Below, in pieces: positions 57,872 through 63,607 of a stretch of 64,000 nucleotides of DNA. The translations under genes and the position numbers were made by a program. How positions within the stretch are numbered: the first letter of the stretch is position 1; every line of letters starts with the position of its first letter. The notes below the pieces were generated by a model. It made no database searches. It was not told the origin of the DNA and saw only the letters and a list, made by a program, of their open reading frames with translations. This stretch comes from Flavobacteriales bacterium (GTDB lineage Bacteria; Bacteroidota; Bacteroidia; Palsa-965): the NCBI GenBank assembly GCA_040377305.1, contig JBEIPA010000003.1, forward strand, positions 188,978-252,977, written 5' to 3'.

Positions 57872-57915
57872 CTAATCCAATCATTTCATCATCTGATCAT
57901 CCTATCATCACTTCA
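57872..57915 (-). repeat. Degenerate GATGATNN octamer tract on the minus strand
   Basis: Reverse complement reads gatgatag gatgatca gatgatga aatgattg. Confidence 0.65.
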
Positions 57916-57935
57916 CCCAGATTCTATCGGGTACG

Positions 57936-58748: not shown

Positions 58749-59108
58749 ATGGTAAAAACGAAGGAAGGTCTCACAAAATCGGAATGCAAGAAGGCAATGC
58801 TCCCTGTTCGCGACGTGCTGGAGTTGCTCAGCGGCAAATGGAAACTGCCGATTATCATCTCACTCATGGAAGGCAACAAGCGTTTCAGCGAGATGGCACG
58901 CGAAATTGAAGGCATCACCGATAAAATGCTATCGAAAGAATTACGTGATCTCGAAGCCAACGAACTCGTGAAGCGAACAGTGTACGACGATGTTCCCGTT
59001 GTGGTCGAGTATTCCATCACCGTCTACGGAATGTCGCTGAAGAGCGTGATCTCCGAAATGTGGAGATGGGGGAGTCAGCATAGGAAGAGAATTACGGGAA
59101 GGAATTGA
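58749..59108 (+). CDS. HxlR family winged-helix transcriptional regulator
   Basis: C-x6-RDVLELLSGKWKLPII...RFSE...ITDKMLSKELRDLE...VEYSIT; start set to ATG 58749. Confidence 0.93.
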   Translation: MVKTKEGLTKSECKKAMLPVRDVLELLSGKWKLPIIISLMEGNKRFSEMAREIEGITDKMLSKELRDLEANELVKRTVYDDVPVVVEYSITVYGMSLKSVISEMWRWGSQHRKRITGRN

Positions 59109-59109
59109 T

Positions 59110-59249
59110 GATGATGGGATGATTGGATGAATGGATGAGGGGATGATAGGATGATAGGATGATAGGATGATGAGATGATGAGATGATGTGATGATGTGAT
59201 GATGTGATGATGTGATGATGTGATGATGTGATGATGTGATGATGTGATG
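59110..59249 (+). repeat. Octamer microsatellite, 17 units
   Basis: Nine variant GATGANNN units followed by eight perfect GATGATGT units. Confidence 0.95.
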
Positions 59250-59454
59250 GGAGCAGGGAAAGATATGTGTTTTCTTTGGTCTCATGGGTTTGATATTTTA
59301 GGTTTTACATAGGCAGCAGTGTTAATAGGTCGTGTTCGATTTCTTATTGAAAAGTTACGGCGGTTTTTCTTTTCAGAAGTCATACCCTTCGAATATTCGA
59401 AGTTTAACTTTCAGAAAAACCGGAGATTTTGCGATACCTTAGCAATATGGGATG

Positions 59455-59517
59455 CACGAGAGACTTAAAATCCTTTGGCGGTAACGCTGTACGGGTTCAA
59501 GTCCCGTCCCGGGTACA
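59455..59517 (+). pseudogene. tRNA-Leu(TAA) 3' portion / pseudo-tRNA
   Basis: Anticodon loop CTTAAAA, variable arm GGCG-GTAA-CGCT, T arm ACGGG-TTCAAGT-CCCGT, acceptor 3' strand CCCGGGT-A-CA. No matching 5' acceptor strand upstream, and one mismatch in the anticodon stem. Confidence 0.8.
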
Positions 59518-59536
59518 ATGGCAAACTTTAATCCGA

Positions 59537-59935
59537 ATGGTTTTGGTTATATTACTAGGATCATGTACTCCTCCTTTTGTTTCTGAGAATAAGGATTGCG
59601 ATAGTTCAGCATACACTTTTTCACATCGAGAAGTCAGAGACGATAGTACGCTTCGTGACTCTGTCTTTTATTGTAGTAATAATTTGGCGTGGAAGAAAAT
59701 TGTAAGTTACTATTCGAATGGCGCGAGAAGTGTTGAAGCATATTTTTTTATGACAAAAAAGGCTGGCACATGGACTACATTTCAGAAGAACGGGTTGAAA
59801 ATGAGTACATGTAATTATTGCGACGATCACTTATGTGGAGAATCACTTTATTATAGTCCAGATGATGAATCCAAGGTTATTAGACGAGAGGTCTATGGTA
59901 ATGAAGGGGATTTAGTCAGTTCCCAGGAATACTGA
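59537..59935 (+). CDS. MORN-variant/YwqK-like lipoprotein (candidate immunity protein), possibly 5'-truncated
   Basis: Lipobox LGSC; SYYSNG...GTWTTFQKNG...GESLYY repeats. Confidence 0.65.
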   Translation: MVLVILLGSCTPPFVSENKDCDSSAYTFSHREVRDDSTLRDSVFYCSNNLAWKKIVSYYSNGARSVEAYFFMTKKAGTWTTFQKNGLKMSTCNYCDDHLCGESLYYSPDDESKVIRREVYGNEGDLVSSQEY

Positions 59936-59958
59936 AAAAAGCGTGTGAGGTACAGCGT

Positions 59959-60005
59959 AAGCGCGAGAGGAACAACGCAACGTGTTGGTGAGAAGGCAAA
60001 GGTTG
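59959..60005 (+). repeat. 47-bp direct repeat, copy 1
   Basis: AAGCGCGAGAGGAACAACGCAACGTGTTGGTGAGAAGGCAAAGGTTG; 42/47 identical to 61512-61558. Confidence 0.85.
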
Positions 60006-60710
60006 CTATTGTTTGCAGCGAGGAACGGCGGGAAGGTAACAGTAGCAACTACCATGGTTGCAAGTCAGGATGCTCCGGCGGGATTTGTTTTTAATGATGC
60101 CCAAAGTGGATTTAAATCTCAATTGTATCGAAGAGAACAAGCAGATGGAACTTTTGAATATTGTTATGCGTTTGCGGGAACAGAAGGGTTTGACGCAGAT
60201 GCTGGAGCAGATGTAAAGCAAACGGCAGGTATGTCCGATCAATATGATTTGGCGATAAAGAATGCAGGCAAGTTGAGTGCTTATTTAGGAAATCAAGTAT
60301 TAACCTTCACTGGGCACTCTTTAGGCGGAGGTTTAGCTACAGCTGCTGCGTTGGCGACACATAAATCAGCAGTAACCTTTAATCCAGCCTGGCTTTCACA
60401 AGCAACTATACTTAAATACAATTTAAATCCGGGGAATGATGGTTTTAGAGTTAATAATTACATTGTTGCTGGAGAAATCTTGAATAGTTCACAAACAATG
60501 CTTGGACCTCCAATGTGTTCTCACGTGGGCAAAGATCACTTTATGCTCGATCCGGAAATTTTTATGACAGGTAATATTGTTATTGGCGCAGGAGTGGGAC
60601 ACACAATGACTTCAGTGTTTAGGGCGCTTAATATGAATCCTCCGGTCAGCAATGTTTCTGGTTCTCTTAAACAACGAGCTCCGGCAGGGGCGTTAAGCAA
60701 GAAACCATGA
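59982..60710 (+). CDS. Lipase (alpha/beta hydrolase) toxin-like C-terminal domain lacking a delivery domain
   Basis: YAFAGTE, FTGHSLGGGLA (GxSxG), AVTFNPA, VAGEIL, GH near the end; first ATG at 60054; no signal peptide. Confidence 0.78.
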   Translation: MLVRRQRLLLFAARNGGKVTVATTMVASQDAPAGFVFNDAQSGFKSQLYRREQADGTFEYCYAFAGTEGFDADAGADVKQTAGMSDQYDLAIKNAGKLSAYLGNQVLTFTGHSLGGGLATAAALATHKSAVTFNPAWLSQATILKYNLNPGNDGFRVNNYIVAGEILNSSQTMLGPPMCSHVGKDHFMLDPEIFMTGNIVIGAGVGHTMTSVFRALNMNPPVSNVSGSLKQRAPAGALSKKP

Positions 60711-61495
60711 AAAATACAGTTCTAAAAATTCTAGTAATATGCGGATTGATGCAAATTTTATCTTGCAGTGAGGGATACTTGCCTGGATTTGATTTTAATT
60801 CCTTTGAAGCAACCCCAGTTGAGGAACTTGCAGATGCAGTTGAAGCTGACGATCCTGATGCAATCGCGGAGTTTTTGTTGCAAAACAAAAAATTGATAGA
60901 CTATCAGGAACAAGAGTTTGGCCACAGTGTACTTTTTTTAGCTGTAGTTAATCATAAATACAATGCTGTAAAATCCTTGTTGGGTCATGGAGCAAGTATT
61001 TCTTTGAAAGATTACTCTGATAGTTCAGACGTTCTAATGACACTGTGTAAAGGGTACGGAGACAATGAATGCGACACAACAATGCTTGGAATATTGCTAC
61101 AGGATAATCCGGATTTGCGAACGTTTTGTTACGACTCTCAGGGAAATAGGATAACGTTGCTATGTAAAGCATCGGACTCCATGTTTGGGTGCATGTCATT
61201 TATTCAGATGCTTGTATCTGCAGGAGCTGATGTTAATTATAATCCCGAGAACAAACCGGATTGCAGTCCAGTATGTGCAGCATTATTGGTAGATCGATTA
61301 GATTTAGCACGTTATTATCTGATTGACTGTAAAGCCGAAGTCGCTGAGTATCTATTTTTACGTCCGCAAGGAGATGCAAGAGTTCCGGTTACAATTACTC
61401 AGTTCTTGAATGAGCAAAGCTATGCGAGCGACCCAAAACAGCAGCAGCTCAAGGAAGAAATACTTGCGTACTTAAAATCAATTGGTAAAGAATGA
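60707..61495 (+). CDS. Ankyrin-repeat lipoprotein, putative cognate immunity protein
   Basis: Lipobox ILSC; FGHSVLFLAV...VKSLLGHGA, MLVSAGADVN; ATGA overlap with the lipase stop. Confidence 0.82.
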   Translation: MKNTVLKILVICGLMQILSCSEGYLPGFDFNSFEATPVEELADAVEADDPDAIAEFLLQNKKLIDYQEQEFGHSVLFLAVVNHKYNAVKSLLGHGASISLKDYSDSSDVLMTLCKGYGDNECDTTMLGILLQDNPDLRTFCYDSQGNRITLLCKASDSMFGCMSFIQMLVSAGADVNYNPENKPDCSPVCAALLVDRLDLARYYLIDCKAEVAEYLFLRPQGDARVPVTITQFLNEQSYASDPKQQQLKEEILAYLKSIGKE

Positions 61496-61511
61496 TCCGC
61501 TTCGTGCTAAA

Positions 61512-61558
61512 AAGCGCGTGAGGAGCAACGCAACGTGTTGGTGAGGGAGCAAAGGTTG
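61512..61558 (+). repeat. 47-bp direct repeat, copy 2
   Basis: AAGCGCGTGAGGAGCAACGCAACGTGTTGGTGAGGGAGCAAAGGTTG, starting 17 nt after the ankyrin gene stop. Confidence 0.85.
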
Positions 61559-61759
61559 TAAGGTCTCCGTGGGAATGTGCGGCTGTGTCCTTACAACACC
61601 ATACAAAAGGTATGACCATTACAACTGGTAAGCAACGAGTGATTGCATTCGACAGAAGAGGGATTCTGATTTTAATGGTTGCGGCTTCAAAGGGAAGTGA
61701 AGGCTGCGAGTCAAACTCATCGATGGTGAAACAAACGTAGGATTCAGTTGAAACAATTC

Positions 61760-61799
61760 AATCCGCTCCAAAAGCAAAAATCCGCTTTTGGAGCGGATT
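61760..61799. terminator. Strong hairpin downstream of the minus-strand tRNA-like end
   Basis: AATCCGCTCCAAAAGC-N8-GCTTTTGGAGCGGATT. Confidence 0.65.
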
Positions 61800-61830
61800 A
61801 AAGCCATTTGAAACTGACTGAAAGTGATTT

Positions 61831-61857
61831 TGTGCACCCGTAGAGAATCGAACCTCC
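61831..61857 (-). pseudogene. tRNA-like 3' end (T-loop plus acceptor strand, Arg-like)
   Basis: Minus strand GGAGG-TTCGATT-CTCTA-CGGGTGC-A-CA; T stem imperfect, upstream part not tRNA-like. Confidence 0.45.
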
Positions 61858-61947
61858 GTCCGCAGTAATCTAATTATAGCGATTCACTTCAAGCGAATTA
61901 CAACTCTCCGGTTTTTCTGAAAGCAAACCTTCGAATATTCGAAGGCT

Positions 61948-62580
61948 TCACTTTTCTACTACAACCTCTGCCGCGCCTTTCGGTCTCACCACTTTCGGTT
62001 TATACACTTTCCGCTTCACACCAATCACTTTCTGTATCGCCGGCTTGTAATTCTTCGCGGTATCATCCGGAATTTTTCCGGAGAGGTAAGCTGCAATTTT
62101 CGGGCTTGCAGTAATGATTGCGTAACCGAGCAGAACCATTGTACACGTCCAGATGAGTTCAGGAATTGTGCCGGGACGCGGTTCCATATCGGATGAGATT
62201 ATCTGCCACAACCATAGAAGTTGTGAACCTACTTCGGAGATGTTGGAGAGCAAAAACATTCCACCCAGAACAATCATCGCCATTTGCAAAACAGTTCGCT
62301 TGCTTACTTGCCATGTGAGTTCAACATCCGGATCTTTTCTGAACACGCGCGCGATAAGTGTGCGTGAACGGAACACCAGAAAATATCCGAAGAAAGAATA
62401 CACTGCGAACCCAATCAAAGACGGAAAAAGCAAAGCCAATATGCTTATTCTTCCATTGCTGATTCGTTCGTACTCGGGTAGGAAGGTGAGTAGTGCAATG
62501 ATCACCTGACTGAGTGCGTTGAGCAGCATGTACACTCCATAAAACTTGAGTATGATTTCGAATAAATCGTTCCGTCTCAT
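61948..62580 (-). CDS. Hypothetical membrane protein (4 TM)
   Basis: Four hydrophobic segments and a basic tail; 4-bp overlap with the upstream gene. Confidence 0.75.
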   Translation of the reverse strand: MRRNDLFEIILKFYGVYMLLNALSQVIIALLTFLPEYERISNGRISILALLFPSLIGFAVYSFFGYFLVFRSRTLIARVFRKDPDVELTWQVSKRTVLQMAMIVLGGMFLLSNISEVGSQLLWLWQIISSDMEPRPGTIPELIWTCTMVLLGYAIITASPKIAAYLSGKIPDDTAKNYKPAIQKVIGVKRKVYKPKVVRPKGAAEVVVEK

Positions 62581-63155
62581 TTCTCGTTCTTTTCAGTTAC
62601 ACAATACACTCCCGATTCTTCCACCGGATATTTTTTATCGAGATCAACATTATTAAAACTCTCTGCATTTCCCCATCCAAAGAATTTCTGAAAGAATGGG
62701 AGAAGCTTATTCGTTTTGATCTGCTCCAGAAAGTAGACTTCATGTTCCTTTTCTTTGATGCCCATGTCGTACAGCATCTGGTCGTGCTCAGTAATGCCGA
62801 GTGAGTTGAACATTTGTTTCATCCGGAAATATTCACAAACGTTTCCGCTTTCTAATCGTCCTGCAAAGTAAAAAGGCATGAACCATCCGATCACGTAACA
62901 GCTCGCTGAAATTATTTTTCCGATAACGTGCATCTTGAACTCGTACCACTTCGAAACCGGCACGTCGTATTTTTTCATCAACGCCAGCACTTCTTCGCGA
63001 TGAAACCACTCGTCGTCTTCAATTTCTTTGATACGACGTTTTTCTTCTTTGCTCTTCACTGCGCCACCATGACCGACGTAAGCAAATGCAGCAGCTTTCT
63101 CACCGGAGTAGGCTTGTTGCATGAGTTTGCAGAGGGCAGGGTGGTTCAGCTTCAC
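62577..63155 (-). CDS. Ferritin-like di-iron protein (COQ7/demethoxyubiquinone hydroxylase-like)
   Basis: AYSGEKAA...EDDEWFHR...RLESGN...EKEHE (E/ExxH twice); start reset to GTG 63155 because the track's longer N-terminus is translated repeat DNA. Confidence 0.8.
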   Translation of the reverse strand: MKLNHPALCKLMQQAYSGEKAAAFAYVGHGGAVKSKEEKRRIKEIEDDEWFHREEVLALMKKYDVPVSKWYEFKMHVIGKIISASCYVIGWFMPFYFAGRLESGNVCEYFRMKQMFNSLGITEHDQMLYDMGIKEKEHEVYFLEQIKTNKLLPFFQKFFGWGNAESFNNVDLDKKYPVEESGVYCVTEKNEK

Positions 63156-63187
63156 GAAGGCAAGATAAGAAGTTGAGGTGGGAAAAT

Positions 63188-63607
63188 GGAACGCGGATTT
63201 TGATGCCCGAGGCCTGTTAGCGTCTTGATGGATGATCGCGGTGAATAGAAGGGTAGGATTTTGGATTTTATGAGATAGGCTTGCGATGAGTTGTGGTAAA
63301 GTGAACGCGGATTTTGTTGCCCGAGGTGTGTTACTTCCTTGAGGTGTGTGTGTGGTAAATTGAATGGTAGGGTTTCGGATTTTATGAGATAGGCTTGAGA
63401 TGAGTTGTGGTAAAGTAAACGCGGATTTTGATGCCCGAAGCCTGTTAGCGTCTTTATGCATGATCGCGGTGAATAGAAGGGCAGGATTCTGGATCTTATG
63501 AGATACGTTTGAGTTTATCTCATAAAATCGAATGATGATTGTTGAAGTTTAACAGAGGCATCCTTGCGAAGCGCCTGGAAAACAACGGACCTAAAAATCC
63601 GCGTTCC
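63188..63607. repeat. MITE-like palindromic element, copy 2, with left arm triplicated (114-nt period)
   Basis: AACGCGGATTTTG at 63190, 63304 and 63418; TTATGAGATA in each unit; right end AAAATCCGCGTTCC. Confidence 0.85.

Follow-up and report, generated by a model that had tools for sequence, protein, structure and literature searches.

Insertion sequences (IS) of the IS3 type have TG...CA tips and a target duplication of 3-4 bp, mobile insertion cassettes (MICs) are non-autonomous IS derivatives with passengers, and integrons and clusters of attC sites lacking integrases (CALINs) belong to the tyrosine recombinase IntI with its attI and attC sites. IS30, in the part of PMC9333248 cited here, targets inverted repeats (IRs), forming head-to-head junctions at its own ends, and also excises segments between its left and right repeats (IRL and IRR). 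Integron cassettes are mentioned in the cited part of PMC9330008, and the cited part of a review of integrative and mobilizable elements (IMEs) gives only two that are driven by DDE enzymes, and both of these have inverted repeats of the normal kind, duplicate their target and use AT-rich sites (PMC5704250). Here we describe a 2.6-kb segment of a 64,000-nucleotide stretch (hereafter the window) of a Flavobacteriales bacterium (GenBank assembly GCA_040377305.1, contig JBEIPA010000003.1, positions 188,978 to 252,977), which is one member of a family of small gene cassettes that appears to be undescribed and occurs in little-studied and mostly uncultured Bacteroidota. An earlier sequence-only reading of the window had suspected an undescribed system, and in the open-access literature, with subscription journals, ISfinder and supplements outside the search, no description of a tRNA-tipped cassette family was found. 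Genomes, contigs of the source genome and loci are given by handles starting with G, C and L.

The segment is bounded by two copies of an inverted repeat (59386-59429 and 61902-61945), each followed on its inner side by a tRNA-like piece. This symmetric arrangement with inward tRNA remnants, seen in the sequence-only reading, is real, and the repeat was extended to 44 nt with 91% complementarity. Exactly two copies are present in the 5.18-Mb assembly even when 11 mismatches are allowed, so the repeat is not a repetitive extragenic palindrome (REP); across the family a genome has at most 10 matches, and a high-copy REP or dispersed palindrome is ruled out. An end of this family consists of a 16-bp palindromic core, a conserved arm, a short linker and a 3' piece of a tRNA or a transfer-messenger RNA (tmRNA). 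In the window the two ends and their direct neighbours are:

59387..59402 (+): palindromic core of the left end (family consensus CTWCG-N6-CGWAG), from repeat comparison and from covariation across 53 ends
59409..59426 (+): conserved arm of the left end (family consensus TTCAGAAAAASCGGA)
59447..59517 (+): tRNA-Leu(TAA) 3' piece from D-arm to discriminator, with its T-loop at 59496-59502, from identity to the genome's own gene
61757..61802 (-): terminator-like hairpin directly downstream of the right tRNA-like piece
61831..61861 (-): tmRNA-like T-arm and acceptor strand of the right end, from similarity to the genome's tmRNA
61905..61922 (-): conserved arm of the right end
61929..61944 (-): palindromic core of the right end, a few bp beyond the stop codon of the outer membrane-protein gene
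61948-62580 (-): outer membrane-protein gene flanking the right core

Over 59447-59516 the left piece is identical at 65 of 70 positions to the 3' 70 nt of the genome's tRNA-Leu(TAA) gene on contig C32, and its T-loop lies 70 nt beyond the arm. The right piece (61831-61861) has its top match in the 3' end of the genome's tmRNA (25/30); with just 3 of the 5 T-stem positions paired, a chimera joined at the T-loop is probable. Of the two tRNA remnants originally reported, the left one stands as tRNA-Leu(TAA) and reaches back to the D-arm, whereas the right one is tmRNA-like and not a plain tRNA. The inverted orientation and different identity of the pieces agree with the earlier statement that the layout is not that of attL and attR. 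ARAGORN found no intact tRNA in the window, the intact counterparts of both pieces are located on other contigs, and an Rfam comparison over the region gave nothing near a gathering score. The description as non-autonomous and recombinase-free also held, since the list of open reading frames (ORFs) and domain searches gave no recombinase or integrase gene inside the cassette; the tyrosine and serine recombinases of the genome are on other contigs.

The first family members beyond the window came from a DNA search of 61 genomes, in which G015 has the same inward pair with different cargo and G007 one further end. Pattern scans gave 18 metagenome loci, of which 11 were kept, and 40 genome loci, of which six were dropped; the dropped matches (seven metagenomic, six genomic and a single viral one) lack a core or tRNA piece and were considered chance matches. 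All kept genome-scan records are metagenome-assembled genomes (MAGs) of Bacteroidota. A covariance model built from 53 ends was then run on genomes of the family and class and yielded further ends, which after removal of duplicates amount to 104 distinct ends from other Bacteroidota. Among the 103 ends with enough downstream DNA to be scored, 77 contain a tRNA or tmRNA piece, defined as an alignment above the best of 60 shuffled controls, and 71 of these are in sense. The pieces belong to about 14 tRNA amino-acid types and tmRNA, the labels being best matches to a 77-gene library and therefore approximate, and are mostly chimeric at the T-loop. The sequence-only reading had stated beforehand that a high-copy dispersed REP lacking any link to tRNA fragments or variable cargo, in an interval unchanged among relatives, would speak against it; what was found is a low-copy motif, linked to tRNA pieces, that encloses differing cargo.

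The linker is AT-rich, measures approximately 23 to 109 nt and has no conserved tip. The exact box TAnnTTTG, which we take to be the Bacteroidota -7 box, occurs in 24 of 103 linkers versus 2.3 expected. The two core halves covary, with 35 double changes versus 16 +/- 2.8 in shuffled data for 53 ends, a difference that is inflated by kinship among the sequences. An inward partner was identified for 40 of the 70 ends that have at least 4 kb of inner sequence, at 18 loci, and such pairs enclose 0.3-5 kb of unrelated cargo. The cargo includes proteins sorted by the type IX secretion system (T9SS), SUKH proteins (L048 and L204), MORN proteins, TIR, STAND and KAP NTPases, Rhs pieces and broken recombinase genes. 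The idea of a cassette with variable cargo is therefore supported by different loci enclosing different genes, and the proposed toxin/immunity content applies to the window copy, with its Rhs lipase tip and immunity-like genes, while the cargo of the family is broader.

Two kinds of junction recur in these loci. At the core, two host genes of G010 enclose a tandem row of three cassettes, each with a left-type and a right-type end, and neighbouring cassettes share one palindrome with an arm on either side; a third shared core is present on another contig, and the same gap in G007 contains a different cassette. In L047 and L064, which are homologous loci, the arms are of different types although the core flank is the same. 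At the T-loop, six G028 ends agree with each other as far as the T-loop, linker included, and beyond it have six different 3' strands. Only 17 of 77 ends have a fully paired T-stem, versus 48 of 51 real tRNAs, and family-wide the pairing drops from 95% beside the loop to about 50% further out. G338 and G364 have a gene, end and tRNA-Glu piece in common, and diverge right behind the piece. In approximately six ends the DNA that follows encodes the C-terminus of a large serine recombinase converging on the end, although some of these matches are self-matches of the query and two were assigned by eye or by DNA likeness only; this is the layout of the genome's native tRNA-Met island (C47), hence the cargo often resembles the DNA behind an island-occupied tRNA gene. 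Priming by a mature tRNA with reverse transcription was set aside, as the pieces mostly end gene-like (discriminator plus C) rather than with CCA and no reverse transcriptase gene was seen nearby. As a separate observation, four to five ends (L047, L053, L064, L013) have a reversed tRNA-Asp piece broken at the T-loop, which at L013 is fused to a forward T-loop.

The enzyme linked to these ends is not the tyrosine integrase to which the sequence-only reading had pointed but a DDE transposase-like protein. Its gene of about 435 codons points at the core, with its stop 5-66 bp outside, in 14 of 96 ends, and nine of these 14 were found from the motif without use of the protein. The protein has rve and rve_3 domains, and its best NCBIfam score, 91 bits with the IS3 model NF033516, is below the cut-off of 160. 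The triad D236/D300/E339 and K346 are invariant in 87 aligned sequences. A structure model made from these 87 sequences (predicted local distance difference test, pLDDT, 84.6) shows an integrase-type fold like the cores of TnsB, IstA and retroviral integrase; an earlier model from seven sequences (pLDDT 50) was unusable. No relatives were confirmed in viral contigs or phages, no match to a PDB sequence was found, and there was one distant plasmid match.

A search that started from the protein matched 49 of 401 class genomes, with a close clade in 12, one sequence of which was already part of the query alignment. Downstream of the 12 close-clade genes there is a full end in eight, and one case each of a contig end inside the core, a bare core, an altered arm and a degenerate end; none of 18 loci with distant homologues has an end beside the gene. 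When 80 genomes were scored with the covariance model, ends were present in all six close-clade genomes (three of which had supplied ends to the model), in two of 25 distant-clade genomes and in one of 49 genomes without a DDE match, counts that are overstated because related genomes are not independent. Furthermore, 21 of 45 ends without the gene are closest, among the 14 DDE-adjacent ends, to the one in their own genome, versus about three expected by chance. None of 18 scored close-clade DDE genes is surrounded by inverted repeats above the shuffle maximum, so the gene is not part of a normal IS, and the DNA upstream of it is not conserved.

Some further arrangements were noted around DDE genes. 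At L109 and L113, two loci with distant homologues, a tRNA-Glu 3' piece lies upstream of the gene and points away from it, and the distant homologue at L100 lies between true inverted repeats, as in a normal IS. In G258 a bare palindromic core without arm (L124:9970-9990) is found right behind a close-clade gene and is followed by an Rhs-core gene; it is possible that this is an empty platform site. Genes for toxin-antitoxin systems, Fic proteins, mobile mystery proteins and AAA-DUF4143 proteins are often located just outside ends (L025, L028, L038, L054, L055, L081, L082, L117), and the same kinds of genes occupy the same host gaps in relatives that have no end.

Our preferred reading, to which we give slightly less than an even chance, is that of a non-autonomous cassette with two inward-facing ends, which the IS3-like DDE protein moves at its cores and whose cargo is taken up through recombination at the T-loop of the tRNA piece. 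It builds on direct observations, namely the anatomy of the ends, the family, the DDE gene outside one end at what may be called master loci, the T-loop chimeras and the arrays with shared cores; we infer which enzyme makes which junction. The DDE protein would bind the arm and join end to end at the core, resulting in a cassette circle. Such a circle would reinsert beside another core, similar to IS30 and IS911 with their IR-IR junctions, and leave the DDE gene behind. The linker and T-loop would act as a tRNA-like landing site for tRNA-targeting islands, by which DNA normally found behind a tRNA gene would end up behind the promoter of the end and later be trimmed.

A number of results weigh against this reading. 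At the threshold used, 30 of 70 ends have no partner, and 24 of the 45 ends without the gene are not closest to the master end of their own genome. The ends do not have the TG...CA tips of IS3, and the exact TAnnTTTG box is absent from the linkers of both window ends. The outer gene points at the core in 71 of 96 cases and the core is terminator-like for that upstream gene, a role that could account for the covariation of the core. No clean empty site was found in close relatives, in which the gaps hold replaced content: G338 and G364, with flanks that are 97-98% identical, have unrelated genes in the same gaps, and one G338 end has approximately 26 bp of non-host DNA outside the core. Just outside three ends there is a tyrosine integrase or excisionase gene instead of the DDE gene, and outside one a serine recombinase gene. 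In the genus of the window genome, eight genomes have ends and only G007 has an intact close-clade DDE gene (two of the seven other end-bearing genomes are less than 90% complete), the array genome G010 has only a distant copy with two stops, and genome searches found no copy in the source genome. The dependence among related genomes behind the co-occurrence counts points in the same direction.

Direct signs of movement were also sought. Window DNA is present in one DNA sequencing run, possibly of the source sample, and in no RNA run listed; contigs of that DNA run have no joints at the cores, although contigs drop rare variants and circles, and the single joint listed in that run fits another copy of an Rhs repeat. 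Neither a circle nor an inversion was found, and inspection of five pairs by eye gave no target duplication outside the cores. The comparison of the interval among relatives that had been suggested thus returned swapped cargo but no clean empty site or inversion. Because its genome lacks the DDE gene, the window copy is an orphan, probably stranded or inert, and the earlier suggestion that it is served in trans is not borne out here.

The T-loop chimeras with many tRNA types inside a single genome could also mean that the DDE protein itself joins the inner side of an end to the T-loops of tRNA genes or att sites. The element would then be one-ended and tRNA-targeting, its cargo would be downstream DNA trimmed by adjacent deletions, and the core would mainly be a terminator and secondary hot spot. 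We consider this unlikely, but several loci agree with it: genes are cut exactly where they meet the tRNA piece (in L029 a STAND NTPase, and the DDE gene in G389 and G030, where it lies on the inner side of the end and runs into the piece or is cut short), an intact tRNA gene is located directly upstream of the DDE gene at two loci, and TTCG is common to core half and T-loop. A DDE enzyme acting at this position is difficult to reconcile with a linker of varying length without conserved tip, and leaves unexplained both the loss of everything outside the core in most ends and the arrays with shared cores; split tRNA 5' halves were not noticed either, though no systematic search was made. Somewhat less likely still, in our view, is an origin from ordinary islands of tyrosine or serine integrases whose T-loop specificity is relaxed, with the ends as their att arms, the DDE gene as a passenger or core-adjacent inserter and the pairs as relics of deletion and of allelic exchange between conserved host genes. 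The T-loop is a known crossover subsite of tRNA islands according to the cited part of PMC4383910, integrase genes are found outside four ends and recombinase fragments are common as cargo, most genomes of the genus lack the DDE gene, and host gaps of close relatives hold other accessory genes. Against this, the remnants are inverted, differ in identity and have no cognate tRNA gene nearby, so that the Islander filters would reject them, and the distance from arm to T-loop is not fixed. The DDE adjacency is also far tighter than that of integrases, with 15 versus 4 and 3 matches at most 2.5 kb outside (some common to neighbouring ends), and 18 pair loci and a clean array of three cassettes are hard to reach by random decay.

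An invertible switch, in which the linker promoters would change direction with respect to cargo or flanking genes, is very improbable. Inverted repeats are common in Bacteroidota phase variation and the repeats described here are inverted, and the different arm types joined to one core flank at L047 and L064 would fit. On the other hand, no invertase gene is found nearby and the contigs of the source run, from which rare variants are dropped, contain no joint at the cores; moreover, since both ends face inward and travel with the cargo, inversion would change little.

With the preferred reading of a DDE-moved cassette loaded at the T-loop in mind, the family can be compared with the systems described above. 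Like IS3, IS30 and IS911 copy-out-paste-in elements it has ends of about 40 bp and head-to-head end junctions, and its DDE protein is IS3-like with a score below the NCBIfam cut-off; unlike them, its DDE gene lies outside the unit, without flanking inverted repeats (0/18), TG...CA tips or target duplication, each end retains a full palindrome and most ends carry a tRNA piece. The two inverted ends, passengers, lack of an enzyme inside and promoter-like box reading from the end are shared with miniature inverted-repeat transposable elements (MITEs), tIS and TMos as far as these are described in the cited part of PMC9330008. As in a MITE or MIC, terminal inverted repeats surround passengers without an enzyme inside, but no intact autonomous parent with its gene between the ends was found, no target-site duplication was seen, cargo joins at the T-loop and cassettes form arrays. 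Islands targeted to tRNA and tmRNA genes (Islander, cited part of PMC4383910) likewise have island-type DNA behind 3' tRNA gene fragments, which begin near the T-loop or further 5', whereas here the fragments are inverted chimeras that differ in identity, the other end has no cognate gene and an integrase is absent from the inside. The enzyme gene beside a recombination site and promoter, the tandem one-gene cassettes and the enzyme-less arrays resemble integrons and CALINs, and a tandem array of co-oriented short-gene cassettes is present in G010 but absent from the window copy; here, however, a DDE protein (rve/rve_3) takes the place of a tyrosine recombinase, and a cassette has two inverted ends instead of one attC. 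The rAID arrays (recombinase-associated acquired interbacterial defence) of Bacteroidales, in the part of PMC12247911 cited here, are also from Bacteroidota and have short co-oriented orphan immunity-type genes with conserved intergenic motifs. They are defined by a tyrosine recombinase, and our family is set apart, by that description and not by motif sequence, through its DDE link, broader cargo and tRNA-bearing motifs; no rAID-type tyrosine recombinase lies upstream beside the window copy or the G010 array. The single dif-like site found in the genome (C21) is unlike the core, so a pdif module, with XerC/XerD dif-like sites as ends, was rejected.

The architecture thus fails tested defining features of IS3, MITE/MIC, tRNA islands, integrons, rAID and pdif, and works partly as an IS-derived passenger cassette and partly as an integron, with a chemistry that is probably borrowed from known enzymes. 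It can tentatively be regarded, with the odds somewhat against it, as a DDE-driven counterpart of the integron. The DDE gene and one end would form the platform, ends with promoter and T-loop would sample DNA of tRNA islands (or the DDE protein would join T-loops), and the cassettes would be exported and stacked via shared cores.

Between the two ends the window copy has the following features:

59537..59935 (+): small lipoprotein of 132 aa, starting 20 nt beyond the tRNA piece, immunity-like by context only
59959..60030 (+): Rhs-locus repeat, copy 1
60063..60710 (+): headless lipase, the C-terminal toxin domain of Rhs proteins
60707..61495 (+): ankyrin lipoprotein with a Pfam Ank_2 match, the likely cognate immunity protein
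61509..61600 (+): Rhs-locus repeat, copy 2

The headless lipase and ankyrin lipoprotein recognized in the sequence-only reading could both be placed: the lipase aligns over 214 aa, with 51% identity, to an Rhs protein of 1232 aa (residues 1017-1223), and a homologue of the ankyrin gene is found in G015, alone, behind a cmk-like gene. The 132-aa lipoprotein has no match in Pfam or NCBIfam and has a weak paralogue on contig C60. The 47-bp direct repeats reported earlier (59959 and 61512) are present as part of a longer repeat that trails Rhs toxin-immunity pairs elsewhere in the genome (C1, C24, C3). This repeat of 50-110 bp lies behind immunity genes, with other copies at C1:15404, C1:43380, C24:16986, C24:17084 and C3:1098. 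In the window two copies (59959-60056 and 61509-61600) bracket the lipase tip and the ankyrin gene, and because the lipase begins directly where copy 1 ends, the repeat may, to judge from this placement, be a module-swapping site in its own right. The G+C profile that had been proposed as a check shows only a modest dip, with 0.38-0.45 within the cassette versus about 0.43-0.49 upstream.

Outside the cassette, a tandem tract of the 8-bp unit GATGATNN and an inverted partial copy (57875-57918 and 59094-59269) bracket a block of GNAT, DoxX and hxlR genes; this region has been shuffled, since G013 has the same genes in a different order. At 63181-63511, three tandem units of 114 bp run in frame into the 5' end of a COQ7-like ORF (62577-63461), and relatives of this repeat are abundant in the source sequencing run. 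Elsewhere in the genome, a 21-nt direct duplicate of the tRNA-Leu(TAA) 3' end (C32:12994-13014) lies approximately 160 bp behind the intact gene and forms a tiny att-bounded islet, and C7:88552-97060 contains 15 tRNA genes of divergent sequence within about 8.5 kb, probably a horizontally acquired tRNA array.

The family may have been overlooked so far because the close clade of DDE genes is rare, having turned up in 12 of 401 genomes of a family-even class sample and in none of 401 from across the phylum, most of which are well assembled. As an insertion tool, a DDE enzyme would be of a new kind if it has a defined 40-bp site or prefers the universal T-loop. If the proposed mechanism is true, it would be a gene-capture route in which DDE enzymes of the IS type meet tRNA attachment sites and arrays of cassettes, three subjects that are normally studied separately. 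Gaps between the housekeeping genes of Bacteroidota are filled by orphan genes for immunity, defence and secreted proteins, and these would then have a candidate source.

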